A DNA stretch of 32,218 nt from a virus (taxonomy: Duplodnaviria > Caudoviricetes): the IMG/VR virus record IMGVR_UViG_3300043416_000222, positions 1-32,218 of that record; one strand, written 5' to 3'. How positions within the stretch are numbered: the first letter of the stretch is position 1; each line of letters begins with the position of its first letter. The notes below the pieces were generated by a model. That model did no database searches. It was not told the DNA's origin and worked only from the letters and a program-made list of their open reading frames with translations. The translations under genes and the position numbers were made by a program. Shown here piece after piece: positions 2,048-28,028 of the stretch.

Positions 2048-2230
2048 ATGCGCGGGGACTGGGAAGAGGACATCATCGACCGCATCACGGCGAGCGCCTC
2101 CACCGACCCCCTGCTCAAAGAAGCCGCAAGCGAGATCACCTATATGCGCGAGCAGCTCACGGCACAAATCAAAGAAGTCAACCGCGCTCGGCAAGCGCTT
2201 CTCGTATGCCAGCGGGCGCAACGTGCTTGA
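2048..2230 (+). CDS. hypothetical protein (DIIDRI..EAASEI family)
   Basis: MRGDWEEDIIDRI..LLKEAASEITYMR; similar to 808-1137. Confidence 0.65.
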   Translation: MRGDWEEDIIDRITASASTDPLLKEAASEITYMREQLTAQIKEVNRARQALLVCQRAQRA

Positions 2231-2633
2231 ATTCGTAGTCGTTGGAATCCCTGCCCCGCAAGGCTCAAAGCGTGCATTCGTGCGCGGTGGCCGCGTTTCG
2301 CTCGTGGAGTCATGCGCGAGGGTCAAGCCCTACCGCGCCCTTGTTTCCCTTGCCGCAAGCCAAGCGCGTAAAGAACCACCAACCGGGTTGCCTGTGGGTA
2401 TAGCGATTGCCTTCGTCTTCGTTCGCCCGAAGAGTCACTACACAAGTAAGGGCGCACTCCGCGCTGGCGCTCCGACTCACCCCGGAAAGCCAGACGTAGA
2501 CAAACTTTGCCGCGCCGTACTTGATGCCCTTACGGGAATCCTGTACCACGATGACGCGCAGGTCGTTTCCTTGAACGCCAGTAAACGCTACGGGGTCGCG
2601 TCGATGACGGCTATTTCCCTTTTCACCTGTTGA
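2223..2633 (+). CDS. rusA: RusA-family Holliday junction resolvase
   Basis: GIPAPQGSK N-terminus, KPDVDKLCRAVLDALTG..DDAQVV catalytic motif. Confidence 0.92.
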   Translation: MLEFVVVGIPAPQGSKRAFVRGGRVSLVESCARVKPYRALVSLAASQARKEPPTGLPVGIAIAFVFVRPKSHYTSKGALRAGAPTHPGKPDVDKLCRAVLDALTGILYHDDAQVVSLNASKRYGVASMTAISLFTC

Positions 2634-2658
2634 CAAGCGCGATACGGGGGAGTATCTT
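2630..2658 (+). promoter_or_regulatory. sigma70-type promoter for the ERF-Gp157 genes
   Basis: TTGACA (2630-2635), 17 bp spacer, TATCTT (2653-2658). Confidence 0.7.
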
Positions 2659-2721
2659 CCTCATGCCCTAGCATTTCGCCGGGGTCGAGTGCGGCGAGCC
2701 GCGCAGTCTTGAGAGGACATT

Positions 2722-3492
2722 ATGCAACGAAGTGACACTATTGGGGAGCTAGCGAAAGCGCTGGCGGCCGCAAACTTAGAAATTGTGAACCCCAGCCTTG
2801 ACGCGGTCAACCCGCATTTCAAGAGCCGCTACGCATCGCTCGGGGCGATCATCAACGCCGTCCGCCTGCCGCTTGCCCGTCATGGGATCAGCGCCGTGCA
2901 GACGGTCAGTACCGATGGCGGGGCGGTCGGGGTAACGACCACCTTGCTCCACGCGAGCGGGGAATGGATGGCAGAGACGGCCATGTCTGCCCTGCCTGAC
3001 CGCGCTACGGTTCAACAGCTTGGCTCGGTCATCACCTACCTGCGCCGCTACGCGCTCGCGTCCATCACGGGCATCGTTGGCGAGGATGACGATGACGGCA
3101 ACGCGACCACTAGCCCAAGCGCACCGCGTAGCGAGCCTCGTAAGCCCTTCAAGCCGCAAGACCCACGGACAGCCGTTCCTCCGCCTCCGACCGCTCCCAA
3201 GGCAACCAAGCCCGTCCCTGAGCCTGTGGCGGAAGTCAAGGCACTAGACGCGTACCCAGACGTGTACGAGGGGACGTTTGACATCTTGCGCGTTGTTGTC
3301 CGCGCTGGCAAGCCCTACGCCATTCAGGTGGACGGCAAGCATGGCAAGGCGTGGATCGCCACCACCGTGCAGGAGTACGCCGATCTCGCCAAGGAACACG
3401 TCAACGACTGTATGCAGTTGCAAGTTGAGCGCGTTGGCGACACGCTCCAGATCATGAAGGTCATCGCATCCAAAAAGGAGATTCCGTTTTGA
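2722..3492 (+). CDS. erf: ERF-family single-strand annealing protein
   Basis: NPHFKSRYASL, LLHASGEW, QQLGSVITYLRRYALASITGIVGEDDDDGN; Pro-rich linker; EIPF C-terminal tail. Confidence 0.93.
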   Translation: MQRSDTIGELAKALAAANLEIVNPSLDAVNPHFKSRYASLGAIINAVRLPLARHGISAVQTVSTDGGAVGVTTTLLHASGEWMAETAMSALPDRATVQQLGSVITYLRRYALASITGIVGEDDDDGNATTSPSAPRSEPRKPFKPQDPRTAVPPPPTAPKATKPVPEPVAEVKALDAYPDVYEGTFDILRVVVRAGKPYAIQVDGKHGKAWIATTVQEYADLAKEHVNDCMQLQVERVGDTLQIMKVIASKKEIPF

Positions 3493-3998
3493 GCCTCTAC
3501 CAAATCACGTCCGAAATGCAGTCCATTCTCGATGCCGTCTTGGACGGTGGTATCGACTCGCCCGAGGCGCAGGCCGCGCTCGACGAGCATCTCACGGGTC
3601 TAGATGTCGCCCTCGACACCAAGGCCGAGTCCTACGCGGGATTCATTCGTGAGCTAGAGATGAGAGCGGAGGCGAGGAGCAAGGAAGCTTCTCGCATCCG
3701 TGCGCTCGCAGCGGCTGACGATGCCCTTGCCCTACGTCTCAAGGAAGGGCTGAAGGCGGCAATGGAAACGGTCGGGCGGCTGAAAATTGAAACGCCGCGT
3801 TTTAAACTTTCCGTTGCTGGCGTGGGAGGCAAACAGTCGCTTCAGATTGATGACGATGCCGTCAAGGGGCTTGAAGTCCCGCTCGTCAGGGTTGTCACCG
3901 AGCCAAACAAGGAAGCGATTCGCATCGTCCTTGAGGCTGGCGGCGAGATCCCCGGATGCCGCTTGCTCCCTCGCGGGACAAGCCTTCGCATCCGCTGA
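3489..3998 (+). CDS. Siphovirus Gp157-family protein
   Basis: MSLYQIT.., K(A)ESYA..I, coiled coil, PNKEAI..GGEIPGCRL..GTSLRIR; TTG start overlapping the erf stop. Confidence 0.85.
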   Translation: MSLYQITSEMQSILDAVLDGGIDSPEAQAALDEHLTGLDVALDTKAESYAGFIRELEMRAEARSKEASRIRALAAADDALALRLKEGLKAAMETVGRLKIETPRFKLSVAGVGGKQSLQIDDDAVKGLEVPLVRVVTEPNKEAIRIVLEAGGEIPGCRLLPRGTSLRIR

Positions 3999-4002
3999 CC
4001 TA

Positions 4003-4431
4003 CTACCTTGCCTCTCCCTCGCCGTTGCCTTCGGGTGGCGGCGAGGTTTCTTTTTGCCCAAAGGGAACTAGGCGGTTCAACGCCTCGCGCCGCTTCGCGC
4101 ATGGGCCGCAGGAGTTCGCCTTGATGCCGACCGCGCTCGTCATCGCCGCAACCACGTCACCCAGCCCGCGCATCCGAGGAGGCGCAACCGTCCCCGGTGC
4201 TGGCGGCTGCATTTCGGTGGTCAGCTTGGCGCGGGCGCGGGCAGGCCCAGCGCCAAGGAAGAGCGGCGGGTCAACGATGTTGCCTTCCCGCGTCTCGCGC
4301 TGCTCACAGGTATCGCACTTGGTCACGTCTAGGTTCTTAAGGCAAAGGGGTGACGTACTAGCCACGCGCCACGACTTGCAATCCATGATCGGGAGCGAGA
4401 TGCCGGAGACGTTGAGCGTGCCGATGGTCAT
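4003..4431 (-). CDS. hypothetical Cys-motif protein (GLGD..CxxC..R..LN type)
   Basis: ATGA-coupled; RGLGDVVAAMTSAVGIKANSCGPCAKRREALN motif plus N-terminal C..C..CxxC. Confidence 0.75.
   Translation of the reverse strand: MTIGTLNVSGISLPIMDCKSWRVASTSPLCLKNLDVTKCDTCEQRETREGNIVDPPLFLGAGPARARAKLTTEMQPPAPGTVAPPRMRGLGDVVAAMTSAVGIKANSCGPCAKRREALNRLVPFGQKETSPPPEGNGEGEAR
4017..4055 (+). terminator. intrinsic terminator ending the + strand arm
   Basis: 13 bp stem cctcgccgttgcc-TTCG-ggtggcggcgagg (cUUCGg loop) followed by tttcttttt. Confidence 0.85.
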
Positions 4432-6266
4432 GATGTGAGGGCGACGACTGAGCCGTCAGACTTGCAGTAGATGCGGGGCGCTTGGAATGAATGCACGCAA
4501 GGCTGTGGCAGGGGATGGTCGATAGCCCACTCGTTGCAGTCCACGCCTTGCCCCGGGCAGCATGGCGCTGGCTGGTAAATGAATGGGTAGGCGTAGCACC
4601 CCGTGCGCGGGTCAGGCATCCCCGGGCAGAGCGAAGTCCAGCCGTAGACAAGCACTATGATCGTCCCGCCAATGTTGACGGTAATGTCTTCAAGCGGCCA
4701 CCCATCGCGGGCTTCGCAGTTGGTTGCGTCTTGGTAGAAGCCGATGTCCACGCAAATCGGGATAGTGCCGTTTCCGTACTCTTGCACGCGCTTCATGGTG
4801 TACCGCTCCCCGAATGAATACTCGGGGAAGGACAGGCATTGGATGACGTAGTTGTTCGGGGTCGCTGTGATAGCCGAGATGGACGCGTTGCAAGTGTTCT
4901 CACTCGTCATGCGCCAAGGGTAATCAACGAGCAGGGTCTGCGAGGCGCAGGCGTAGTAGCGAGGGGACGAGGCAACGAGCGTGACCGTGATGGTGGTATT
5001 TGCGTCTGTGAATTCCACGCGGTCAACCGTCAGGGTGTCGCCATCCGAATGCCCGGGGCGATCGTTCGGGGTCTGCCAGTCGCACAGTACGCAAGACTGG
5101 CGATTGCCGAACCAGAAGTATGCCGACCACGGTGGAATGCCATGCGCCGTTACTAGCGCGCTGATACGGGTATTGATGCGCTCGGCAATGTGCGCGGCGT
5201 TGCCTGAGAAGATCACGATGTCAAGACCGCAGACACTCAGCTTGGGCGCTCCGAGCGTTCCCCAGCCCGTTGCGACTGTGTTCTGTTGGTCGATGTGGAC
5301 AAGACCGGACGAGCCAAGAAAGAGCGCATTCAGCGCCGCCTGAGCGCCTTGCCCCTCGGGGTCAATCCCCGGCGCAAAGCAGGCCGGGAAGACGATAGTC
5401 ATGATGTCCTCGTCATGGGACGGGCAACCAAACCCTCCCAGCGAATAGCACGTTCGCACGTCATACGTTTCAAAGCGATCCTCGTAACTATCGCAGAAGT
5501 CTGGCAGGTCGTCGCAGATCGGGGTATTGCCGCAGCAATCCCCCTGCGGCTCGCAGTCCGGGCAACTCATGTATTGGACGTAGGACTGGGTAACTTGGTT
5601 CGGGCAGTTGGCTGGGCTGGCGGGGTCGCGCACGGTGCAGAAGCCCATCTCCTGCGACATACCTACGTCGAGGCTGACGATCTCAACTGGCGGCCCGTGA
5701 TCGCAACGAACGTCCCACGGAACGCCAATCGTCTCAATGCAGGTGCGGGCGGAGCTTGCAATGGTGACGCCCTTCCCTTTGACCGTTCCAGCCTGATCCT
5801 TGAAGTCGTAGCACTCGGCAACCAATTCCTCGCAGGGCAGTTGCGTGTTGTTCGCAATCGCGGGGCCGTACTCGGGGATTTGAATGTTCGCAATGCCGCC
5901 CGGGTTCCCTTGCTGTTGGGGATCAGGGTAACAACATGGATCGCCTTGAAGGGCGCGGTTCTTGATCTTGAGCAATTCGCCCACGTTGACAGGCCATATC
6001 GACAGCGGATTTGGGCAGGGCAGCGCCTCAAAATTGGTCAGGATGTAGATGCAGCAGTCATACGAGATGTAGTAGCACTTGTTCGCAATGTCTGGCGGGT
6101 CGGGAATGCCTATCGAAATCAAATAGCCGACGCAGAACTCAATGCGGTCAGGAGCCTGCTCACAATCAGGCGGGCAGCAATAGTTGGCGAAGTAGTCCTC
6201 GCACTTGAGGGCGTACCAAAGCACGCCACCAACGCAGCAACATGAAGCCGCCGGGAGTGCGCTCAC
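4428..6266 (-). CDS. large cysteine-rich protein, possibly virion-associated
   Basis: Likely GTG start at 6266 (MSALPAASCCCVGG); ~612 aa with about 44 Cys by hand count. Confidence 0.8.
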   Translation of the reverse strand: MSALPAASCCCVGGVLWYALKCEDYFANYCCPPDCEQAPDRIEFCVGYLISIGIPDPPDIANKCYYISYDCCIYILTNFEALPCPNPLSIWPVNVGELLKIKNRALQGDPCCYPDPQQQGNPGGIANIQIPEYGPAIANNTQLPCEELVAECYDFKDQAGTVKGKGVTIASSARTCIETIGVPWDVRCDHGPPVEIVSLDVGMSQEMGFCTVRDPASPANCPNQVTQSYVQYMSCPDCEPQGDCCGNTPICDDLPDFCDSYEDRFETYDVRTCYSLGGFGCPSHDEDIMTIVFPACFAPGIDPEGQGAQAALNALFLGSSGLVHIDQQNTVATGWGTLGAPKLSVCGLDIVIFSGNAAHIAERINTRISALVTAHGIPPWSAYFWFGNRQSCVLCDWQTPNDRPGHSDGDTLTVDRVEFTDANTTITVTLVASSPRYYACASQTLLVDYPWRMTSENTCNASISAITATPNNYVIQCLSFPEYSFGERYTMKRVQEYGNGTIPICVDIGFYQDATNCEARDGWPLEDITVNIGGTIIVLVYGWTSLCPGMPDPRTGCYAYPFIYQPAPCCPGQGVDCNEWAIDHPLPQPCVHSFQAPRIYCKSDGSVVALTS

Positions 6267-6307
6267 GCGACGATGACAATGCAGAGGGCGAGGATGAACA
6301 ATCGCAT
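6263..6307 (-). CDS. 14 aa hydrophobic micro-ORF MRLFILALCIVIVA
   Basis: ATG overlaps the upstream stop (TGATG) and its TGA overlaps the next GTG start (GTGA). Confidence 0.35.
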   Translation of the reverse strand: MRLFILALCIVIVA

Positions 6308-6411
6308 CACTTGCCAGCCTTCTTGGTGGCGAGATACCAACCAGCGCCGAAAGCAATGGCGGCAGCGGCGAGAGCGAACCAAATATTCCCTAGGGTGTCT
6401 GCGAGAATCAT
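6307..6411 (-). CDS. 34 aa single-TM membrane protein
   Basis: Hand translation MILADTLGNIWFALAAAAIAFGAGWYLATKKAGK; N-out TM with basic C-terminus; fills the gap; not in the ORF track. Confidence 0.7.
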   Translation of the reverse strand: MILADTLGNIWFALAAAAIAFGAGWYLATKKAGK

Positions 6412-16428: not shown

Positions 16429-17463
16429 TTAGCCAGTGACGTTGGCGCACAAGAACCCAGAGACTGGAGCAACCAGTTCCGAGGTGCTGTTGTCAATGAC
16501 GCGGCCTTCAATACGGCGATCCTTCGGATCGTCCCAGTTCTCGACTGTCATGTCTTCAAAGGCGAAGATCTGGCAGGTGCTGAACGAGGTCGAACCTTCG
16601 ACACCAATCAAGCCACCGGGGCGGCTCACAAAGATTGCCGAGTTGCCGTACACGAACGAACGAGTCGCCGAGGATGCGCCCTTGCGGGTCGTAATCTTGA
16701 CCGAGTCGTCAACGACAATTGAAACGCCGAACAGATTCGGCGGGAGGCCGTAACGGCTGAAGATGTCGCTACCTTGCAAGAACGGCAGCGCAGCTGGGTA
16801 GTTCTTGACGTAGTTGCGAATTTCGTCCGTCTGGGAAATAAGGTTCGCAATGGTCGGACTAATGACCAAGCAAATGTCTTCGCTACGAACCGCGCCACCA
16901 GTAGCAAGCGAGATGCGCTGGAGCGCGTCTTGGATACTTGCCTGAATGACGTTCGTGGACGAACTCGTCCAAACACCCTTCCAAGCACTACCAGTAGCCT
17001 GATAGTTGCCAGCTGTGGTAAACGCCGCAACCGCTGCGGTGTTGGTCAACGCGGTAGCCGTTCGCATGGAGCGAGCGGTCATAGCAAGCTGTGCCTTGCT
17101 GCGAGCGTGCTGGGCAACGATGTCCCACGCGGCTTGCTTGACTGTCTCGTTCGGAATGTAGAACGGGAAGGCAAAGCGTTGAGCCGTGAAAGTAACGAAA
17201 TCGTGCTGGTTCATCTTGCCGACCGGACGGTCATTGCCAAGAGGCCAGATAAATTCGTTAACGTCAGTCACGCGCACGTTGTCGTCCGAATCAAGACGCA
17301 GGTAGTACCCCGTCTGCTGATTGCAGGCAACGATTTGAGCGTAACGGGTGATGGCAAACGAATTCACCGCACGGGTGAACTCAACTTGGAGAGCGCCAGT
17401 TGCGAGCGCGTTGGTGGAGGGGACGTAGGTATTTAGACCGCCTCCGACTGTTACATAGGCCAT
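16429..17463 (-). CDS. major capsid protein
   Basis: 344 aa, AGGAGG RBS, after scaffold and cement genes and followed by a hairpin and the adaptor; PNLFGVSIVV motif of the HK97 fold. Confidence 0.85.
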   Translation of the reverse strand: MAYVTVGGGLNTYVPSTNALATGALQVEFTRAVNSFAITRYAQIVACNQQTGYYLRLDSDDNVRVTDVNEFIWPLGNDRPVGKMNQHDFVTFTAQRFAFPFYIPNETVKQAAWDIVAQHARSKAQLAMTARSMRTATALTNTAAVAAFTTAGNYQATGSAWKGVWTSSSTNVIQASIQDALQRISLATGGAVRSEDICLVISPTIANLISQTDEIRNYVKNYPAALPFLQGSDIFSRYGLPPNLFGVSIVVDDSVKITTRKGASSATRSFVYGNSAIFVSRPGGLIGVEGSTSFSTCQIFAFEDMTVENWDDPKDRRIEGRVIDNSTSELVAPVSGFLCANVTG

Positions 17464-17920: not shown

Positions 17921-18535
17921 TTAGCCCTTCATCCGGGCGTTGATTGCCTTGGCAAACTCTTCAGGCTTGCCAGCAAATTGCTTGACGAGTGAGCCAACGT
18001 CACCAATGTCCATGCCACGCGGCAGGGCTGCTCGGCTCATATCAATCTTGGTTCCGATTGGGTCGCGGGCGAACAGGTCGCGCCATGACTCAAGGAGAGC
18101 GACTGGGTTACGGGAGGCCTGCAACTGACCAACAAGCGCCTCGCGCTGTGAGTCTGGGATGCGGTAGCCCTCCTGCTCCATGATCTCCACTTCGCGCTCA
18201 AACTTCTCGCGCTTCAACTCGGCTTCGAGTCGGGCGAACCGCGACTTGAGGCGAGCGTTTTCCGAACGAAGAGCGTAGGTCGAACGACGGCTGGCAATGA
18301 CGGATTCGTCTTCCATGTCGTCCTCTTCGCCTGCCTCAACGTCATGGCTCTCGATGTCGATGTGGACTTGACCGTCTTCCTCGGCCATTTCGTCCTTCAT
18401 CTCATCGTCGTCCTCAGCCATCTCGTCCTTATCGTCCGAGTCGTCTGCGAACTTCTTCTTCATCATGTCCGAGAGTTCGGAGATGGCGCACTTCATGGCC
18501 TCCAACTCCTCGCGCATATCGTCGCTGGATGCCAT
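17921..18535 (-). CDS. nested scaffold protein (internal in-frame start)
   Basis: AAGGAGGAGG-ccagc-ATG at 18535, analogous to lambda Nu3 and Mu gpZ. Confidence 0.65.
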   Translation of the reverse strand: MASSDDMREELEAMKCAISELSDMMKKKFADDSDDKDEMAEDDDEMKDEMAEEDGQVHIDIESHDVEAGEEDDMEDESVIASRRSTYALRSENARLKSRFARLEAELKREKFEREVEIMEQEGYRIPDSQREALVGQLQASRNPVALLESWRDLFARDPIGTKIDMSRAALPRGMDIGDVGSLVKQFAGKPEEFAKAINARMKG

Positions 18536-19420
18536 GCTGGCCTCCTCCTTGGTAGTCGTCGGGATGAATGTATTGAGTCCGCCACCAGCCCCGACGAGGT
18601 CATGGTTGGACTTTGAACAAGTGATCTTCTCGCCCTTGCGGGTGAAATGGGTATCCGGGAGGGGGCGGCGCGGGGTTTCACGCCCGAGCAACGCCACCTC
18701 GGATAGGTGGTTTGAGCCTGACCAGATCTCAGCCGACCGACGCGGGAAGGCGTTGGTAGCAATGAAGCGGTCGAAAATATCGCGGTTGACTTCCATGTCG
18801 CCCACAATGTACCCAATTCCATCGCGTTCTTCGTAGGAAATTGTGGGGAATCGACCGACCGCCGACTTCGGTTCCTTGCCGTCCTTCTCGTGCATGATGA
18901 CGAGGCGAGGGAACGAGCCGCGAGCCATGTGTTTGCGCGTTGATGCAACGATGTCCTTGAGGCGCTTGTTGTTGAAACGCTTCAGCTCCGGGTCAGCCTC
19001 GCCGTCGTCGATGGCTGGGTCGAATGCCATGAACAGTTCAACGCGCTCAATCATGACCTTGTCGCCGTCTTCGGCGACTGTGTGGGATGTCTTTGCGTTC
19101 ACGGTCTTCTCCTCTTTGCGGTCGAGTTCCTTGTCCTTGCGCTCTGCCCAAGCCTTGCCAGCATCGCCGCCCCACAGGAGCCAAGCGATATACCCGGCAG
19201 AGTCCTTGCCCCAGCCCTCGCCTTGCTTGTCAACCTCGTGCCGAGCGAAGTAGGACACCATCCGGCGCACGGTTTCAGGGGACAGGTTCGCCCGGTTCTT
19301 GATGTCACGCGCCCGGGCTACGCCGATTTCTGTGCCACCGCGACCATGCTTTTCGCGCAGCTCAAGGCCACGGGCAGCATTGGATGCCATTTCGGTGGTT
19401 GGTTTGAGGTCTATTTCCAT
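17921..19420 (-). CDS. prohead protease-scaffold fusion with extra N-terminal domain
   Basis: IMHE..AVG (His), FPRRSAE (Ser), LSEVALLG..P as in Mu gpI-type proteases; acidic coiled-coil C-terminus; ATG 19420. Confidence 0.8.
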   Translation of the reverse strand: MEIDLKPTTEMASNAARGLELREKHGRGGTEIGVARARDIKNRANLSPETVRRMVSYFARHEVDKQGEGWGKDSAGYIAWLLWGGDAGKAWAERKDKELDRKEEKTVNAKTSHTVAEDGDKVMIERVELFMAFDPAIDDGEADPELKRFNNKRLKDIVASTRKHMARGSFPRLVIMHEKDGKEPKSAVGRFPTISYEERDGIGYIVGDMEVNRDIFDRFIATNAFPRRSAEIWSGSNHLSEVALLGRETPRRPLPDTHFTRKGEKITCSKSNHDLVGAGGGLNTFIPTTTKEEASMASSDDMREELEAMKCAISELSDMMKKKFADDSDDKDEMAEDDDEMKDEMAEEDGQVHIDIESHDVEAGEEDDMEDESVIASRRSTYALRSENARLKSRFARLEAELKREKFEREVEIMEQEGYRIPDSQREALVGQLQASRNPVALLESWRDLFARDPIGTKIDMSRAALPRGMDIGDVGSLVKQFAGKPEEFAKAINARMKG

Positions 19421-19424
19421 GCGG

Positions 19425-20453
19425 TTAGACAATCGCAGACAGGTTGGTGGCGATTTCTGCCGATCCGGTGTCGTTTGGGTGAACGCCATCAGAAAGCCGA
19501 TTGGTGTTGTTTGTCATGATCGACAAACCATTAATGTAGAACGTATTCGCGTCACCAGTAGCCAGCTCGGCCGCTTGTACTGCGCTTCGGTATTGGGCAA
19601 GCGTGATCGTATTGGTGTTGGGGGAGTAAATCGGGGAGATCACATGAATGGCGGCAGAAGGCAATGCCGCCCGCGCATTAGCAATCCATCCCTGCACGGC
19701 GGTCTGGAATGTCACTAGCGGCGTTTGCGCTACGAAATTGTTGTAGCCAATCATGTAGGTCACGACGTTGCACCCCAACCCAGAAAGGGCAGAGCCTTGA
19801 CTAGCAACCGCCGTAGCGCCACCGTTTGCAATGTTGACTAATTGCTTGCTTTCTGCAACAGCCAGAAGGTACGGCCATGTCGTTGTGACCTTTGAAGCCG
19901 CCGACCCTTGCGTAATACTGTCACCGCATACCGCGATTTTAGTTGCTGGTCTTGACGGGGCGGTGAATGTTGCGCCCGTGTTGACTTCAATCTTTCGCAA
20001 TTCAAACCCAGTCCAATACGGCCAGACAATGGTCACCGTCTTGGAACCAGCGGAAAGTCTAAATTCAATCGTCACAATTCCAGACACATCCCACCCATTG
20101 CTCCAATTAAACGTCTGGACTTCCACCCCATCCACAAGAATTGCTCCAACACTAAACGCAGTAGATATATCAGCGTTGTAAAGAACTAGCGTGTTGTGGA
20201 ACATAGATACGCGCACAGAGGTGGCGGTTGTTGTGAACGATACGCGGCTCCCGGGCGAAGCATTTTCAAACTGATATCCGTCTGTGATTGGGCGAAGGAA
20301 CCGAAGCGTGCTTGCCGACTGCTCCGCAATAGACGCGTAATCCGAGACGGTGAAGCTTGTCGAGTTCGGCAAGTATTGCGTCCATCCCGCTGCCGTCCCG
20401 CTTAATCCGGGGCGACGGAATCGTCTTATGGCGTTGGAGAGTCGGTTCCGCAT
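19425..20453 (-). CDS. SGNH/GDSL-family hydrolase with N-terminal beta domain
   Basis: CGDSITQG, NIANGG, MIGYNN, DGVHPND blocks I/II/III/V. Confidence 0.88.
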   Translation of the reverse strand: MRNRLSNAIRRFRRPGLSGTAAGWTQYLPNSTSFTVSDYASIAEQSASTLRFLRPITDGYQFENASPGSRVSFTTTATSVRVSMFHNTLVLYNADISTAFSVGAILVDGVEVQTFNWSNGWDVSGIVTIEFRLSAGSKTVTIVWPYWTGFELRKIEVNTGATFTAPSRPATKIAVCGDSITQGSAASKVTTTWPYLLAVAESKQLVNIANGGATAVASQGSALSGLGCNVVTYMIGYNNFVAQTPLVTFQTAVQGWIANARAALPSAAIHVISPIYSPNTNTITLAQYRSAVQAAELATGDANTFYINGLSIMTNNTNRLSDGVHPNDTGSAEIATNLSAIV

Positions 20454-21601
20454 TAAATGCTATACCACGCCGCGCCCATGCTTCCTGCGCTTGCCTTGAA
20501 TTGCACTTGAACCAATTGAGATCCAACCGCGTCAACAAGGGCTGAAGCCGTTTCAGTCGCTGTGGCCGTTACCGTCGATGGGCGGTAAAGAGAAGCGTCT
20601 GGGCTGAGTGCCACCTGTGTGATGTTGGAGAAGACATACGAGGGGACATTGTTGACTGTCATAGCAGCCACGGTTCCCGTGCTGTAGGTCAGCGTCAAGT
20701 CTGCCAAGACGGTTGGGAACCATGCAGTAACTGGCGGGACGGTCGTATTCGTTGCTGTGACGGCCGCAGTAGTAGTAGCAAGGTACGGAGATGCGGTCGT
20801 TCCAAATTCAGCTTGCCCACCCCACAACACAACACCCTTGGTGACATCTGAGGTATATGAACCCAAACCCCAGTTGCCACCGCTTGCTGGTGTTGCTGTG
20901 TCACTTGGAGAAATCAAGAAATACTGTATTTGACGGCAGGTAACAGCCACGCGATACCACGAATTGCCAACGCTTGTCACAGTTGCAGAAGGCGTAGTGG
21001 TGAACCACGTTCCCGTATTAACAAGATCGGACTGCGTAATACTGCCCGTATTTAGATCAACGGTAACTGTGTAGTAGGGGCCAGAAGAGGCGTTGCCGCC
21101 GCAAATAGATGCGTATTGCCGACCCAGTCCACCCTTGATATAAACCGAATGTGTGCGGATATCGGTAGACGACCCGGGCGCACCTAAATCACGGCCAATG
21201 TAATGGCTGACAGTTGCGCCCGTTTCAAGAGCATTATCTGCGGTTGTCGTTCCATCTGGAGCAACCGACGCATTGATAGAGCCGCTCGTTACTGCAAGGT
21301 TAGATTTAATCCATGCAGCGTTATCAAAATCTTGGCTGTAGGTGATGAGGTTCGTATAGGTGACTGGAATCGGACATGGGTTCCAGCCAACCACGCGCAT
21401 ACCAACCCCGGTAGCGTTGTTCACGCTGCTCAATGGGGTGATTTTCAATAGGCTTGGGCATACGGCCGTTTCGAGGGTGTAAATGACCCCCGTTGTTGGC
21501 TTGGTATCCGTAGGTGCAATTGATCCGTAACTTGCCGACGCAGCTGCGGGGGCAAGGAATTGCGACGTTGCTTGTGCAGTTGATAGGAATGATTGTGGCA
21601 T
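20453..21601 (-). CDS. head spike/fiber-like protein with inserted carbohydrate-binding-like domain
   Basis: TNLITYSQDF..W..APDGTTTAD..VGNSWYRV..LWGGQAE.G..SPYLATT repeat unit of phage head fibers. Confidence 0.65.
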   Translation of the reverse strand: MPQSFLSTAQATSQFLAPAAASASYGSIAPTDTKPTTGVIYTLETAVCPSLLKITPLSSVNNATGVGMRVVGWNPCPIPVTYTNLITYSQDFDNAAWIKSNLAVTSGSINASVAPDGTTTADNALETGATVSHYIGRDLGAPGSSTDIRTHSVYIKGGLGRQYASICGGNASSGPYYTVTVDLNTGSITQSDLVNTGTWFTTTPSATVTSVGNSWYRVAVTCRQIQYFLISPSDTATPASGGNWGLGSYTSDVTKGVVLWGGQAEFGTTASPYLATTTAAVTATNTTVPPVTAWFPTVLADLTLTYSTGTVAAMTVNNVPSYVFSNITQVALSPDASLYRPSTVTATATETASALVDAVGSQLVQVQFKASAGSMGAAWYSI

Positions 21602-22351
21602 TTACAGTTCTCCTCTGCGCTTCATGTCGAGCGCGATTGCGACCGCTTGGTCTTGTGGCTTGCCTTCTTTGATGAGCTTGGCGATCTTCGCGCCGACGGC
21701 TGGGTCAGCGGCGGACATGATCTTCAGCCCTGCCTTCTGCTCCTCGGTCTGCTCGCGGGTCATGCGGGTCTTCGCGCCGGGGCGGGAGAAACCGCGCATT
21801 AAATCAGAAATTCCGTCTTTCTTTGTTGAAATCGCTTCTGCTTGTTTCTTCAACAAATCAACTTGACCTGTTGAAACAAGTCTTAAACCGCGCAATTTAT
21901 CCCAGCGATACAACGAGCCAACACCTACGCCTGCGTGTGGCATTGTGTCAATCTTCCAAAGATCAATACCAATTTTTGCGGTGTGTTCTTCAATAGGAAC
22001 GCCGTTCTTTTTTGTTGGCGTTACTTCCCATTTTGCAAACGCCACCTTCGCGCCGGGGCGGGAGGACAGGGTCTTGATTGTTTTGCTGTTGTTGATGTCT
22101 CTATTGACAACCTCGTCAATTTCCACAATTACCTTCTTGGCTTTTGGATTTGACTTCTTGAAGTAATCAAGCCTTTTCTGTCCGTAATACTCGGCTTCCT
22201 GCTTTGTATCAACTGACTCATCCGTAACAATTTCGCCATCTACAAATCCGCGAATGATAAAGAAGTTGCCGTCTTTTCTGCTCATGCGCGTCTTTTCATT
22301 GCTAGCAGCAAATCCAAGACGGGCGGCGATTTCTTTGCGTGTGTTGCTCAT
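21602..22351 (-). CDS. RLGFAA-leader modular protein (3 modules)
   Basis: MSNTRKEIAARLGFAA leader, two SRPGAK linkers, C-terminal KEGKPQDQAVAIAL domain. Confidence 0.8.
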   Translation of the reverse strand: MSNTRKEIAARLGFAASNEKTRMSRKDGNFFIIRGFVDGEIVTDESVDTKQEAEYYGQKRLDYFKKSNPKAKKVIVEIDEVVNRDINNSKTIKTLSSRPGAKVAFAKWEVTPTKKNGVPIEEHTAKIGIDLWKIDTMPHAGVGVGSLYRWDKLRGLRLVSTGQVDLLKKQAEAISTKKDGISDLMRGFSRPGAKTRMTREQTEEQKAGLKIMSAADPAVGAKIAKLIKEGKPQDQAVAIALDMKRRGEL

Positions 22352-22385
22352 GTCGTGCATCGTAGCGATCTCCATTGCGATTTAT

Positions 22386-23468
22386 TTATGCGTTTACGAA
22401 ACCGGGGTCAGGAACTTGGCGCGTGTCAACTAGGCGCTGACGCGCTCCGTTGTGCTTGGCAATAGCGGCTGGGTCTATCGTCCCGTTCGGGCGCGTCCAT
22501 CGCTCGCGCAAGGCCTCGGCGGCAGGGACGGGAATAATCGCGCAGCGACAGTTGAAGCCCAGCGGCGGGGCAATCCCAAGGCGGTCGAAGTCTGCCATTG
22601 TCCCGACATAGCCGTCAAAGGCTCGGTGTGTGTCCCGCGTGCGCGGGTCTTTGGTGGCGCTGAACTGCACCAGCGGGACGAACGCCTGTACCCGCTCATC
22701 CCGTAGGACTTCGGCGCTGCCCTCGGTCATGGCACGGTTCGTGTTTGTCCGCAGGACGGTTTCAAGGCGGGAGGACGTTAGCCCTGTCCCGGTCATCAGT
22801 TGCACGGTGGTGACGAAGTCGCCAAGGTTCATGGTCTTGATGAGCTTGCCGACCACGCTCTTGGTAGGGCGCTCCTCGATGACCTGCGCGATCAGTTCCT
22901 GCACCATCCGCGCCTGCGCGACAGGCATGGCGGTCACAAAGAAGGTGGTATCAACGATCCGCTTCACCCGGGAGATAGCGCCTTGCGGCCCCCGTGTAAC
23001 ACCGCGTAACAACGAATCGAGAATTGGGGACTGCTTGCGGAGGTCAGGAAGGGCGTTTTCGCGTTCGTGATCGGTCACGTCCCCGGCGCTGGCGGCGGCT
23101 GCCTTGATGAGCAGCTCCCAGTCGGCGCGTGAGATTGGGACGCGCTTCCTGAACCAGCCCGTGATCGGAGCCATCCACTTCGTCCCGAAGCCCTCAAGGG
23201 AGATTGGTACGTCGCGGTCGAACTTGACCGCGTCCCCATCGTCCAGCATTCCCTCAATAGCCCCGTCTGGGATCTTGGCGGTGTCCACGGTGTCACGCGC
23301 CCCGAAGAGCCATGATGCCATCAGGAGCGCCGCAGTCGCCTCGTGAAACTCAGCCCACGCGGGGAGGGGATCTTCGCCCCGGATCTGAGCAGCGACCGCT
23401 CTACGGTACGCCTGCTGCGACTGGCGCAGCACTTTGCGGAGGTGCTTGTCTAGTTCGGCTTTGGTCAT
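22386..23468 (-). CDS. MuF / SPP1 gp7-family minor head protein
   Basis: RLETVLRTN..G, FSATKDPRTRDTH.AFDG, PPLGFNCRCAIIP. Confidence 0.92.
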   Translation of the reverse strand: MTKAELDKHLRKVLRQSQQAYRRAVAAQIRGEDPLPAWAEFHEATAALLMASWLFGARDTVDTAKIPDGAIEGMLDDGDAVKFDRDVPISLEGFGTKWMAPITGWFRKRVPISRADWELLIKAAAASAGDVTDHERENALPDLRKQSPILDSLLRGVTRGPQGAISRVKRIVDTTFFVTAMPVAQARMVQELIAQVIEERPTKSVVGKLIKTMNLGDFVTTVQLMTGTGLTSSRLETVLRTNTNRAMTEGSAEVLRDERVQAFVPLVQFSATKDPRTRDTHRAFDGYVGTMADFDRLGIAPPLGFNCRCAIIPVPAAEALRERWTRPNGTIDPAAIAKHNGARQRLVDTRQVPDPGFVNA

Positions 23469-24958
23469 CGCTTACGCTTGCGGACGGCGGCTACCTTCGG
23501 CGCTTCAGGGGCTGGCTCGTCGCCCTCGCTCTCGTTGCCCTGCCCGAGCATGGCTGAGAGCGGGTTAGACGATGCGCCCGCGCTGCCTGCGGCTTGACCA
23601 CCGAGGACGGATTCCCCGTCTTCCGGGTCGGACAGACCGAGGAGGTCGCGGACTTCGCGCTCGCTGACGCGGCCGCCCATTTGGATGAACGTTTGAATCG
23701 CTTCTAGGCGCTCCTTCGGGTTCGGGCGCTCAGGGGCGAAGACGAACCGGATGCGGCGGGCATCCTCTTCGGAGGCTCCGAGCATCCCGGCAATGATGCG
23801 AACGAGGTCGGTGGTCAGGCTCTCCGCGAGGCAATCCGCGTGATAGCGGATGACGCGGGAAAGGGTATCGGCGTGGAGATCAGCGACCCCGCTGCCCATA
23901 CCCGTCCCGCCAGCCTCGCTTGAAAGCGACTGCCCGAGGATGGCTTCCTTGAGTTTGCCAGAGAGCCAGTTGACCAACTCCATGAAGATCTGAGCGCGGC
24001 CACCGTTCGCGTCCTTGATGTCGATGTCGTACATGGACTCGGTCGGCGAAATGCGGGGCAGAACGACCGAGTTGTCATTGACGAGATTCTGGAGAATCGT
24101 CATCATCTCGCTCTTGGCGGCATCGTTCCCGGCTGGGTAGTACCCAACGCGGATGCCAAGGGCGTACCGCTCCACATAGGCGGCGGCGTTCTGTAGGACT
24201 TCCTGCTTCAAGAGCCAGATGTACCAGCAGACATCTCGCGCCCCTACGCCACGGTAAACCGTCTCGGCGCTGTTCGGGTCGATGAAGTTTGGCGCGGTGG
24301 TGAAGACGCGGTGCAGGACGATGGCGCGGCGTTCGTTGTCGTCGAACAGGTGGACGAGCGAGTCAAAGCCGAGGTCGGTGATGGAGGCCTGATTGATGTA
24401 GGCGCTACCGACGCGCATCGCCACGTTCCCGGTCTGGTCAAAGGCGAGGGTGTCGGAGGCGAGCGGGAGCCACTCGCGGATGCGTACCCCAAGGCGCGGG
24501 TCGCGGTCATAGACCACGTTGACGGCGCTGCACCCGTACCAGACGGCTTCGTGCAGGGAGCGGAACATATCGCTACGGCGCGGGGCTGCGCCGATGATCT
24601 CGGCAATGCGCTCGGCAAGCTTGACGAGGCGCGGATCTGATTCGTCGTCGGGAAGGACGTTCCACTCCAACCCGGCAAGGGTCACGAGCAGGGAGCGCAG
24701 CACGCCCTCAATGTCCGCGTCTGCTCGCATCATTGCCTGATAGTTCGGGTCAAGGCGGTACGCGAGGCTGGAGTTCCGCAGCATCAGGCTGGCGGTTCGG
24801 AAGAACGTCCGCTGCACTTCCACGGGCATAGCGAGCGGCCCGGTCAGTCCACGATCAATCGGAGGCGGCAGCGGCTTGCGCGGTCGCTTGGTTGGTGGCA
24901 ATCCTGCACCGGGGATCGACTGACGTTGCGAGAGCGGGTTGTTGATCGGGTCGGGCAT
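23465..24958 (-). CDS. portal protein (Mu gp29/DUF935-like)
   Basis: 497 aa; EAVWYGCSAVNV, YVERYALG, KEAILGQSLSS..GSGVADLH; upstream of MuF. Confidence 0.88.
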   Translation of the reverse strand: MPDPINNPLSQRQSIPGAGLPPTKRPRKPLPPPIDRGLTGPLAMPVEVQRTFFRTASLMLRNSSLAYRLDPNYQAMMRADADIEGVLRSLLVTLAGLEWNVLPDDESDPRLVKLAERIAEIIGAAPRRSDMFRSLHEAVWYGCSAVNVVYDRDPRLGVRIREWLPLASDTLAFDQTGNVAMRVGSAYINQASITDLGFDSLVHLFDDNERRAIVLHRVFTTAPNFIDPNSAETVYRGVGARDVCWYIWLLKQEVLQNAAAYVERYALGIRVGYYPAGNDAAKSEMMTILQNLVNDNSVVLPRISPTESMYDIDIKDANGGRAQIFMELVNWLSGKLKEAILGQSLSSEAGGTGMGSGVADLHADTLSRVIRYHADCLAESLTTDLVRIIAGMLGASEEDARRIRFVFAPERPNPKERLEAIQTFIQMGGRVSEREVRDLLGLSDPEDGESVLGGQAAGSAGASSNPLSAMLGQGNESEGDEPAPEAPKVAAVRKRKR

Positions 24959-24961
24959 TGC

Positions 24962-25291
24962 TTAAACCTTTGGGGTGACAACGGCAAGAATGCTTGCCTT
25001 AACTTGTGGGTCGGCGTTGAGAACCATACGCACTGCCCAATCCATTTGCCCAAGGATTGTGCGGACGGCTGCGGCATCGTTTGCCCGCATTGCTGGCACT
25101 AGCTTGGCAAGCAAGGCATCTGCTTTGGCGGTTGCTTGTTTGACCAGTTTCTTTTCGCCCGTGCGGTACTTCTGCGTTTTGGCATCGCGCTCTTCAATCG
25201 CCTTCATTCGTGCAATCAACGCCTCCAGCGCGTGCGTATCCACGGCTGCGAAGATGCCCAGTCGGCGCATGATGGCCTTGCGTTGGCTCAC
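24962..25291 (-). CDS. RLG(I)FAA-leader helical protein
   Basis: GTGA-coupled; MSQRKAIMRRLGIFAA leader. Confidence 0.75.
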   Translation of the reverse strand: MSQRKAIMRRLGIFAAVDTHALEALIARMKAIEERDAKTQKYRTGEKKLVKQATAKADALLAKLVPAMRANDAAAVRTILGQMDWAVRMVLNADPQVKASILAVVTPKV

Positions 25292-26166
25292 GCCTTCGCC
25301 TTCACGCCGGGGCGGGACATAGCCGACACGCGCACAAGCATTTCATCTTCCCCCATCGTCAGGCGATTATATGAACTACCGCTAGACATAAGCAGCGCGC
25401 CGTCTGTGCCAATCTTAAACAGCGGCCGCCCTAACGCTTCAAACTTTGCGTAGGTCTTTGGGGTGACCTTCATTGCTCCTCGCGGTGTTTGGATATACAC
25501 CGTCTTGCCGCTCTCAATGCTGCTCTTGATAAAGGCAAACGCATCGGTCGCCTTGCTCATGTCGGTCTTTGCTCCCGAGCGAGAAGACTTGATCTTCTCC
25601 ATTGATCCATCCTCATAAAGCCAGTATGGCGTTGAGTCGGGATCCTTTGCCGAGATGCCATGCCACTCAAGATCCGCGGCGCTTGTGATGCCCTTAGCCT
25701 TTAATGCCTTACGGAGCGCCCCCGCAGTAGTCCGCTTGTCAGCGGCAAACGCTGTTTTCACGCCGGGGCGGGCAAACGGCGACTTTGACGCGCCAAGGAT
25801 CATCGACTGGGACTTGACGGCGATCCGCAGCTGCTCAACGTAATGCTCGATGTCTTTCGCGCTGGTCGCGGAGTTGATGACCTTGATGGCGTTCGTGACA
25901 TACGCGTCGAGCGCGGCGAGCCGTTCTTTGACCTTGTCGCGCATGAACTTGTAGTTGGTGATCGCGTCCTTGGCTGCGGCCTTTGTCTCGGCGACTTGCT
26001 TGCGGTACTCCGGTGACTTGGGATCAGCCGGGTCGGCGGTCAGCGCGGTAGCCGCGTAGCCAACGCGAGACAAAAACCCCATCTCTGCCTTTGCGCTGGT
26101 GCGGGTTGTTTCTTTCACGCCTTGCGCCGCAAATCCCAAACGCTTCTCAATGTCTTGCTTGCTCAT
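25288..26166 (-). CDS. RLGFAA-leader modular protein (3 modules)
   Basis: ATGA-coupled; MSKQDIEKRLGFAA; linkers TTRTSAKAEM, FARPGVKTAF, SSRSGAKTDM, MSRPGVKAKA. Confidence 0.8.
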   Translation of the reverse strand: MSKQDIEKRLGFAAQGVKETTRTSAKAEMGFLSRVGYAATALTADPADPKSPEYRKQVAETKAAAKDAITNYKFMRDKVKERLAALDAYVTNAIKVINSATSAKDIEHYVEQLRIAVKSQSMILGASKSPFARPGVKTAFAADKRTTAGALRKALKAKGITSAADLEWHGISAKDPDSTPYWLYEDGSMEKIKSSRSGAKTDMSKATDAFAFIKSSIESGKTVYIQTPRGAMKVTPKTYAKFEALGRPLFKIGTDGALLMSSGSSYNRLTMGEDEMLVRVSAMSRPGVKAKA

Positions 26167-26543
26167 GTGGTTCCTTTGTTCTTGCCGTGATTCTCGCCTT
26201 TGCAACTACAGTCGCAAGCAGGCCCAGCCGCGTTCCTGCACTTCGCGCCGCAGGTCGTTGGCTTGTTGGTTGGTGTGTACATGACGAAACGCGTGATCTC
26301 TCGCGGTGTGCCGCTAACGAATCCAACCCAGTAGAGTCGGTCGTCCTTGATGGGTTGCAATTTGTTGAAGTCGTAACTCCAACCGACCTGTGCGTCTAGG
26401 AAGAGCTTACGGAATTCTGTCCCGCTTACCCGCTTCCGGTCGTTTGCGCCGAGTTTGCTTAGACCCGCGTAATACTGCGGCTCCGGTGCGCCACGCCATG
26501 CGGCTGCAAATCCAAGACGGCGCTCAATGTCGTTTCGGCACAT
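26163..26543 (-). CDS. RLGFAA-leader protein with C-terminal Cys/His metal-binding motif
   Basis: MCRNDIERRLGFAA; CGAKCRNAAGPACDCSCKGENHG; alternative ATG at 26552. Confidence 0.75.
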   Translation of the reverse strand: MCRNDIERRLGFAAAWRGAPEPQYYAGLSKLGANDRKRVSGTEFRKLFLDAQVGWSYDFNKLQPIKDDRLYWVGFVSGTPREITRFVMYTPTNKPTTCGAKCRNAAGPACDCSCKGENHGKNKGTT

Positions 26544-26561: not shown

Positions 26562-28028
26562 TCAGCCGAACATTCTGCGCTTGACTGCGCGAGAATCGAA
26601 CATCCTGCTTGTGTCGGTCGCCACGGTGACCGCGCCGCCTGATGTCACCACCGTGCCGCTCGACGCTGCGGTGCAGAGGTCAACGATGCAATCGACCGTG
26701 TCGTCGTGACTGCCAGCGGGGAAGGCGAGCATTTCGTCAAGGGTGGAACGGAAGTCGGCGTGTACCTGCCCGTCATGCGCTTGCGGGAACAGGAGCTTTC
26801 CCTGCTCAACGAACGGCTGTGCGGCGGCTGCGCGTAAATGCTTGTCGGCGGTACGGGTCACGGCAATGACGGGCTGGTGGCAGTCTTGGCGGAACTGGTC
26901 GAATACGCCCTTCTGCGGCCCGTTCGCTTCCGCCAGCACCATGCCTACTCCTCGGCGCTCGACAAGGTCTTTTGCCATGCGGGCGAAGTCGGGGAAGGAC
27001 TCGCGGACGCGCAGGATGTCGGTGAGGTACAGGTTGCGGGCTTGGTCAACCTCCCCAACGATGCAGACCGAGTAATCGGGGTCGTCGCGCTCTTGGCGCT
27101 TCTTGCCGTAGCCCCAGTCGATAGCGGCGACCGTGCGCGTACCAAGGGGAACCGTCCCAGAGCGGTAGTAGCGCGTCCACTCGGGTCGGAAGATCAGAAG
27201 GTCGGAGGAGAGCGGGACAAGTTCGTAGGCGCGGGCGTATGCCATCGGCCCCATCTCGCGGCGCTTCTGATCGAGGATCTCAGGCGTGAACACGCTCGGC
27301 CACGGGCTAATCAGTCCCCGGCAAGGCTCGCGTAGGAGCGTGCCAGCGCGTTCGCATTCGCGTCTCCAGTCGGCGGTAATGTCGTCCGTGTGGAAGGGGG
27401 TCGCCGTGCGCCAAATACGGGCGGGGTGCTTGGCGCTTGGGTCAAGCATGGGGAGCCAGATGTTGTTCATTGCCTCCTTGACCTGTGCGCGGAGGGTTGG
27501 CTGGAGGACGGCGTTGCGTAGGTCGCAAATGTCATCCGGCCAAAGCACGTCGGCGCGTCCGCCTGTTCTGCCGAAGATGCCGGAGGCTTGCACGGAGGGG
27601 TCACGCCTTGCCCCTACCCCGGGCGCGGTGATCGACCACGCCATGACGGTGTCCTCCCCGGGCTTGAGTTCAACGTGGGGGAAGGTGGCGCGGTAGATGG
27701 GGCTGCGGATAATGTCGCGCAGGAATCGAGAGGTTGCGGACGCGGCTTCGTCGTTCTGACCGATCAGCTTAAAGCGTGTCGCTGGGCGGCGACCAAGCCA
27801 CCATGCGGCAAGGTAGGTGAGAGTCGAGGTCTTCGCGTGTCCTCGGGGTAGTTCCGCGTACCAACTATGGTGCTTCAACCCGTGCGCGAGCAGACTGCGT
27901 TGCAGGTCGGAGACGGGCTTTCCGAGGCACAAGGCCAAGAACGCTGCCGGGTTCTCCCGCGCTGCGGCGACCGCCTGCTCCGGGGTCAGGCTTTGCGCTT
28001 TGGTTTTCGCTTTGGCTTTGGAAGGCAC
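26562..28028 (-). CDS. terL: terminase large subunit
   Basis: Walker A ELPRGHAKT, TGGRAD..DD Walker B, TPFH.DD, nuclease AIDWG and HDDTVD. Confidence 0.95.
   Translation of the reverse strand: MPSKAKAKTKAQSLTPEQAVAAARENPAAFLALCLGKPVSDLQRSLLAHGLKHHSWYAELPRGHAKTSTLTYLAAWWLGRRPATRFKLIGQNDEAASATSRFLRDIIRSPIYRATFPHVELKPGEDTVMAWSITAPGVGARRDPSVQASGIFGRTGGRADVLWPDDICDLRNAVLQPTLRAQVKEAMNNIWLPMLDPSAKHPARIWRTATPFHTDDITADWRRECERAGTLLREPCRGLISPWPSVFTPEILDQKRREMGPMAYARAYELVPLSSDLLIFRPEWTRYYRSGTVPLGTRTVAAIDWGYGKKRQERDDPDYSVCIVGEVDQARNLYLTDILRVRESFPDFARMAKDLVERRGVGMVLAEANGPQKGVFDQFRQDCHQPVIAVTRTADKHLRAAAAQPFVEQGKLLFPQAHDGQVHADFRSTLDEMLAFPAGSHDDTVDCIVDLCTAASSGTVVTSGGAVTVATDTSRMFDSRAVKRRMFG

Follow-up and report, generated by a model that had tools for sequence, protein, structure and literature searches.

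Why do four open reading frames (ORFs) in the head-gene block of a small freshwater phage begin with the same short leader, and what does this leader carry? The ORFs lie between positions 21,602 and 26,543 of virus record IMGVR_UViG_3300043416_000222, which was analysed as one window of 32,218 nucleotides; the record is 96% complete, comes from freshwater metagenomes and represents a phage with a Mu-type portal in the size class of 32-35 kb. The original prediction was that the leader serves as an address tag by which variable cargo is loaded into the head. Our analysis revealed that two of the ORFs, named A2 and B, are in-frame cassette arrays in which small modules are joined by a repeated linker. 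Sequence comparison establishes, close to certainty, the leader, the linker, the turnover of modules and the position of exchange points in the linker. As an overall explanation we favour, with some reserve, that small modules are swapped between near-identical phages at the repeated 30-bp linker, that the arrays enter the prohead by means of the N-terminal helix leader, that a predicted Mu gpI-like prohead protease cuts them at the linker Phe or Met into separate small proteins, and that the freed proteins would be injected with the DNA.

Cassette arrays and exchange at the linker

ORF A2 (25288..26166) and ORF B (21602..22351), both on the minus strand as are all features below unless stated otherwise, consist of modules of about 70 amino acids joined by the ten-residue linker F[SA]RPGAKxx[FM]; five copies of this 30-bp element are present in the window, in A2 and B. 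ORF A2 comprises a leader, three modules and a truncated terminal linker. A degenerate first linker ending in K-A-E-M (26080-26124) stands directly after the leader, followed by the copies FARPGVKTAF (25747..25776) and SSRSGAKTDM (25558..25587) and by the terminal copy MSRPGVKAKA (25291..25320), which has no P1 residue and in which the A2 stop overlaps the start of ORF A3. ORF B comprises a leader, two modules of low guanine-plus-cytosine (GC) content and a constant C-terminal tail. Its leader is followed by a short K-T-R-M site (22283-22303), module B1 (22064..22282), the linker SSRPGAKVAF (22037..22066), module B2 (21788..22036), the linker FSRPGAKTRM (21761..21790) and the tail domain phrog_2423 (21602..21760).

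Loci of relatives were fetched via the portal (80 loci), via a 63%-identical protease (75), as genome contigs (two) and via linker DNA (134). The two genome contigs were the only ones in the genome collection that carry the protease, one in a Gemmatimonas metagenome-assembled genome (MAG; L291) and one in a Planctomycetaceae MAG (L292, 35.5 kb, of whole-phage length), and they may be misbinned. In the relatives the A2 and B slots are filled with strings of modules separated by the same linker. A total of 193 unique linker-bearing ORFs gave 352 unique internal modules with a median length of 73 amino acids. Clustering of the 327 modules of at most 130 amino acids resulted in 141 families, including 67 singletons; the 25 modules longer than 130 amino acids were left out of the clustering and of the scans described below. 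Six of 54 module families were found in both the A2 and B slots and the ORFs starting at 26166 and 22351 have the internal repeated linker in common, so that the earlier description of the leader-bearing ORFs as otherwise unrelated does not hold for these two.

Comparison of 28 near-identical phages, whose portals are 98-100% identical, revealed 17 distinct strings of modules in 22 complete A2 arrays and 18 distinct strings in 24 complete B arrays, as read by a parser that missed some first modules, the window's B1 among them. Comparison of 38 distinct array DNAs placed 305 of the 328 ends of shared DNA blocks inside the linker, where 53 were expected and 1000 random draws gave at most 76; the block ends are not independent events. 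The silent sites of the linker are homogenised: among 213 collapsed copies GGC encodes 197 of 213 glycines, CCC 146 of 159 prolines and TCC 151 of 182 serines, far above the background use of these codons (GGC 47%, CCC 18-25% and TCC 19-29%). The 18-nt core of the linker is part of the longest open frame in 198 of 200 contexts, and all 116 spacings between copies are multiples of 3.

Candidate machinery for exchange at the linker is present in the genome as a RusA-like resolvase (2223-2633), an ERF single-stranded DNA-annealing protein (2722-3492) and a Gam-like protein (3489-3998), which together occupy 2223..3998 on the plus strand, and no site-specific recombinase or integrase-type family was found among the 55 ORFs scanned in this 96% complete record. 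For these two reasons the exchange probably proceeds by annealing at the repeat, and ERF-type recombination between linker copies is likely as judged from the gene content. Contigs of one DNA run that join 21788 to 22045, 21788 to 22305 and 25316 to 25757 at linker ends were not counted: the sequence between is unread and the sides are short. Contigs of RNA runs cover parts of the region and cannot show transcription.

Predicted cleavage at the linker

Analysis of the residue that follows K-x-x in the linker, where it was not forced (n = 174), revealed phenylalanine (81) and methionine (79) as the predominant amino acids, followed by histidine (6), alanine (6), valine (1) and glutamine (1). 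Leucine never appeared at this position, and it was also absent in the set of linker-core contexts. A change between the codons TTT and ATG requires two base substitutions, and 26 of 68 module families are found behind P1 residues of both kinds.

A predicted Mu gpI-like prohead protease fused to a scaffold is encoded at 17921..19420, its start being placed by comparison with relatives (the longest ORF starts at 19489). It begins with a phrog_2859 domain (19082..19417) and contains an in-frame embedded scaffold. The protein resembles Mu-like_Pro PF10123 (Atlas language-model score 0.95, the family being found on 17% of that cluster), and its structural model has weak prohead-protease fold matches in BFVD. 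Residues H68 and S120 are invariant in 41 sequences, in motifs located at 18884-18898 and 18728-18742, respectively. The junction between protease and scaffold, HFTRKGEKITCS (18614..18649), has the linker spacing F-x-R-x-G-x4-F/C, which occurs in 120 of 120 close homologues, and the junction phenylalanine is kept in 91 of 106 parsed distant homologues. The scaffold half contains seven [KR]xx[FM][small] sites where 1.5 would be expected (P 0.0006); no such enrichment was seen in 21 other proteins. A total of 232 sites were counted in 114 distant scaffolds against 130 expected, and module bodies are depleted of the site (10 against 18 expected, P 0.024). These sequence patterns make cleavage after K-x-x-[FM] by the prohead protease quite probable.

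Several results speak against this prediction. The protease has no Pfam match; its profile found nothing in the PDB sequences at E 0.001, only flagellin appearing at E 0.72; and a Foldseek search of its model against the PDB likewise gave nothing at E 0.001, with the varicella-zoster virus protease at rank 49 (E 0.4). The model is poor over the active-site loops, and none of 89 phage records covers 80% of the protease-scaffold, that is, no cultured relative was found. Some scaffold sites had been noticed by eye before the cleavage pattern was derived from the linkers. The terminal A2 linker is not a full cut site, since it has no P1 residue.

The modules might instead be made from internal starts in the linker (AAGG followed by ATG), or be freed by a host protease after injection. 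An ATG preceded by an AAGG-like sequence does end 76 of 213 distinct linkers, and an internal start of the type AAGGAGG...ATG also appears to be used for the scaffold. However, 106 of the 213 linkers end in TTT or TTC and nine in CAC, the same module follows F or M, and the motif is also present in the phage scaffold. We regard this alternative to cleavage by the prohead protease as very improbable.

Other features of the protease-scaffold and the capsid protein were also observed. An AAGGAGG with an in-frame ATG at 18533-18550 precedes the scaffold half and suggests an internal start for free scaffold, as in Mu-like phages. The segment GGGLNTFIP of the protease-scaffold (18560-18586) copies GGGLNTYVP at the N-terminus of the capsid protein; both are kept in relatives and are possibly a common docking or cleavage element. 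The likely major capsid protein (16429..17463), assigned by a weak PF09950 match (E 0.026) and by position, has at residues 278-284 an invariant F-x-S-R-P-G-G that resembles the head of the linker and may be due to chance. In four distant protease-scaffolds (P0154, P0155, P0158 and P0162) Phe sites at the junction or the N-terminus are followed by large inserts or additional modules, which amounts to cargo fused into the protease.

The leader as a candidate packaging tag

All four leaders were found at the predicted N-termini: MCRNDIERRLGFAA (26502..26543, start 26543) on ORF A1, MSKQDIEKRLGFAA (26125..26166, start 26166) on ORF A2, (GTG)SQRKAIMRRLGIFAA (25244-25291, start 25291) on ORF A3 and MSNTRKEIAARLGFAA (22304..22351, start 22351) on ORF B. 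A six-frame scan of the whole window with RLG.?F[AS] gave exactly four matches, all of them the leaders. ORF A1 (26163..26543) contains the leader and one cysteine-rich domain (CxxxCxxA..CxCxCxG), phrog_6842, and ORF A3 (24962..25291) the leader and one helical module, whose content differs among near-identical phages. In agreement with the placement given originally, A1, A2 and A3 lie between the terminase large subunit gene terL (26562..28028) and the Mu-type portal (PF06074; 23465..24958), and B follows the MuF head morphogenesis protein (PF04233; 22386..23468).

The leader was surveyed on both strands of 158 loci found through proteins, the window among them (1.78 Mb in total). A loosened leader pattern gave 157 matches at ORF starts, all on the late strand, with 155 in the terL-to-protease block, one unplaced and one after the capsid gene. 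The leader consensus is M-S-x-x-R-K-x-I-x-x-R-L-G, of which I and RLG belonged to the selecting pattern. Its codons differ between the four copies, and in relatives four codons for arginine, six for leucine and four for glycine were found (37 distinct leader/DNA combinations), which places the constraint on the protein. The expectations of a leader conserved at the protein level in relatives, attached to variable cargo and confined to the head block were borne out, and comparison of ORFs in relatives revealed that the leader-bearing ORFs are not full-length paralogs.

The FAA that follows RLG in the window proved to be variable, sister clades having RLGVF-ARPGAK, RLGMA-AHPGAK or RLGSA. Since the leader of a sister clade runs as RLGVF-ARPGAK straight into the linker, FAA is best assigned to the head of the first linker and is the first of the predicted protease sites. 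In a sister clade the cysteine-rich phrog_6842 domain is the first module of one array of 1000-1300 amino acids, and in the lineage of the window the phrog_6842 ORF and two other ORFs stand separate, each with its own leader, as would be expected if every polypeptide needs its own tag. The leader is present on 74 of 89 complete arrays.

Two points weaken the case for a tag. The 158 loci are redundant and centred on the portal or the protease, which are head genes, so that the counts are not independent events and the window's own four of four is the cleaner control. The leader is absent from 15 of the 89 complete arrays, of which 14 have phrog_2859, phrog_6842 or phrog_2423 and one has no other recognised constant domain. 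What remains of the address-tag proposal is the conserved leader on variable head-block cargo; it had overlooked that the cargo consists of shuffled polyproteins joined by linkers, its FAA is reassigned and the leader is not universal. A function of the leader as an address tag for packaging is plausible from these comparisons, with about even odds.

Alternatively, the arrays may be ordinary late accessory proteins that are not packaged, with the linker as a recombination repeat or flexible peptide and the leader as a duplicated translation-start region. The homogenised linker DNA and the 71-74% DNA identity between the leaders of A1, A2 and B agree with this view. Against it stand the alternation of F and M without leucine, the presence of the same motif in the scaffold and at the protease junction, the codon diversity of the leader and its confinement to the head block, and we consider it quite unlikely. 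Packaging of the arrays into the head, on the same sequence evidence, is likely.

A possible mode of action for the leader was found in the scaffold, whose C-terminal helix EEFAKAINARMKG (17924..17962) the leader resembles in register. The scaffold C-terminus reads [FY]-x-K-A-I-N-x-R-[IML]-K (33 variants) and the leader R-K-[AE]-I-x-x-R-L-G. Leaders scored on a profile of the scaffold tail had a median of 9.7, compared with 4.0 in shuffled sequences and 1.2 in a set of 750 other N-termini, and 35 of 69 leaders were above the 95th percentile of other N-termini. In the reverse comparison, with a leader profile on protease-scaffolds, the tail ranked first in 24 of 47 distinct sequences and among the top six in all 47. 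The likeness is modest, as only seven of 69 leaders were above the 95th percentile of their own shuffles, and it is further reduced by the rank of the scaffold tail among the window's late proteins (only 6th of 7021 sequence windows with the leader profile) and by the other tails in which distant proteases end. Protein P0263, which has ten matches to the scaffold tail, was rejected as an unrelated repeat protein. In the P22 scaffold, according to the portions of the reports used here, coat protein is bound by a helical element at the C-terminus, which can also bring cargo fused to it into procapsids (PMC9962691; 10.1101/2022.12.13.520362). The likeness to P22 is that the leader resembles the scaffold C-terminal helix of the phage studied here; the difference is that the P22 fusions are engineered and C-terminal, whereas here a natural look-alike is N-terminal and its coat binding putative. 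That the leader mimics a coat-binding helix of the scaffold is suggested only tentatively by these profiles.

Module cargo

Analysis of one representative for each of the 141 module families revealed that one (DUF7678) passes the Pfam cut-off and six match PHROGs without assigned function; NCBIfam and PADLOC gave nothing convincing. None of the 141 families has a hydrophobic segment and the modules are soluble; the isoelectric point (pI) is above 8.5 in 84 families and 17 families are acidic. The ratio of nonsynonymous to synonymous polymorphism (pN/pS) is below 1 in each of the 47 families that provided a usable pair (median 0.17), indicating purifying selection. The ORF B modules have a GC content of 42% compared with 63-64% in terL, portal and MuF, which points to recent import. 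Module B1 has seven distinct relatives in other arrays, an Atlas score below 0.8 and no known family. Module B2 is predicted with a confident fold of a five-stranded sheet and a helix (pLDDT 81.7); it has no PDB match, and no stand-alone homologue of 45-146 amino acids was found. The domain phrog_2859 occurs as an array module in relatives, at the N-terminus of the protease and, in cultured phages including S-CBS1, as the first part of ORFs annotated as capsid, a distribution that ties the arrays to the prohead. Small cysteine-containing modules of the types NCGxGxxGFxPGNxC and ACWxGY...VPNCVP recur after F/M sites in many arrays (L039, L042, L043, L049, L057 and others).

The hypervariability of the modules and their location in the head block would also suit outer capsid decorations that bind host or environmental surfaces. 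Pfam and PHROG scans detected no Ig-like, lectin or decoration domains, a site of the prohead-protease type is most easily understood within the head, and the modules are small and basic; such a role is highly improbable. A second possibility places the cut arrays inside the head as structural pieces, namely basic peptides that condense DNA or fill the core and do not act as injected effectors. The high pI of most families, the head-associated appearance of the constant domains phrog_2423 and phrog_2859 and the absence of matches to an effector family (Pfam, PHROG, NCBIfam and PADLOC) fit this possibility. The turnover of at least 141 unrelated families among near-identical phages fits host-specific functions better than filler, as do the existence of 17 acidic families and the purifying selection found in every one of the 47 families that could be tested, so that a structural role appears unlikely.

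Turning to the injected effectors that we favour, an early effect of the modules on the defence or physiology of the infected host has, by analogy with T4, somewhat less than an even chance; the lack of any match to a known anti-defence family in the Pfam, PHROG, NCBIfam and PADLOC scans counts against it. A fuller proposal, which we put forward as speculative, is a combinatorial payload, in which the 30-bp element would serve as both recombination and cut site for more than 140 mini-proteins and a 12-residue leader derived from the scaffold helix would load the capsid with a strain-specific, injected anti-defence cocktail.

Neighbouring genes

Between ORF B and the protease (19425-21601) lie two variable genes. 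One encodes a tail-like protein (phrog_5939) and the other a GDSL esterase, which was found in only six locus ORFs compared with 51 for the neighbouring gene. At the end of the tail block (4428-6356) a very cysteine-rich late protein of 642 amino acids is encoded that has no Pfam or PHROG match.

Comparison with known systems

Cassette turnover by recombination is a property of MuF and polymorphic toxin cassette systems, integrons and shufflons. The phage studied here resembles them in cassette turnover next to head genes (a remark on cassettes is found in the part of PMC5512222 used here). It differs from them in having many modules per polypeptide, and neither toxin/immunity pairs nor a site-specific recombinase were seen.

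Polyvalent proteins of phages and conjugative elements are, as far as the consulted text of Iyer et al. 2017 (PMC5512222) describes them, multi-domain proteins in packaging-gene contexts that are mosaic and predicted to be packaged and processed. The arrays are similar in carrying several unrelated domains in one polypeptide, in their packaging-gene context and in their mosaicism between relatives. Unlike the polyvalent proteins covered in that text, modules of at most 130 amino acids in the arrays contain no zincin metallopeptidase or catalogued enzyme domain (MPTase, ART, methylase-helicase or PBECR). The modules here are 55-110 amino acids long, and the fixed linker is at once a DNA repeat and a predicted cut site; the word 'linker' has 0 occurrences in the main text of PMC5512222.

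The Mu gpI/gpZ-type protease is encoded, in the section of PMC2628397 available to us, by a gene with an in-frame embedded scaffold. The predicted protease shares with it the in-frame scaffold, a likely internal start and the Mu-type portal, MuF and gp36 neighbours. The differences are that the match to PF10123 is by language model and weak fold only and that cargo arrays do not form part of that section's description.

No description of linker-joined, recombining head-cargo polyproteins was found in the literature searched, which lay mostly outside subscription papers and supplements. What is new here, at the level of sequence comparison, is the strain-level evidence that the linker is the exchange point, together with a discrete leader. 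If the overall explanation is true, a small phage is able to rearrange the payload it injects while packaging stays intact, and a K-x-x-F/M cleavage specificity is defined for a Mu gpI-like protease. Furthermore, about 141 pre-delimited, soluble mini-proteins would become screenable candidates for virion-delivered anti-defence or host-takeover factors, and the short leader with its cut site would provide a compact tool to load proteins into phage heads.

The internal proteins of T4, in the excerpts of the literature used here, are diverse and have in common only a capsid-targeting sequence (CTS) of 10-19 residues that is removed by gp21 (PMC3012670, PMC9026906, PMC7411985). The arrays resemble IPI-III and Alt with their CTS in having a short N-terminal leader on diverse, small, mostly basic proteins whose content varies among relatives. 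The leader here also ends in a predicted prohead-protease site, which matches the scaffold and the protease junction by sequence alone. Unlike in T4, a single polypeptide consists of many linked modules and contains further copies of the site internally, the leader sequence is unrelated, and the genes present are a Mu-type portal, MuF and a gpI-like rather than gp21-type protease, all of them known here from sequence. The site is K-x-x-F/M, compared with the Glu-ending motif reported for SPN3US, a motif said to be like that of T4. By analogy, the arrays are best read as a variant of the internal-protein strategy that would work like the T4 internal proteins without being members of that group, from which they differ in protease, site and leader.

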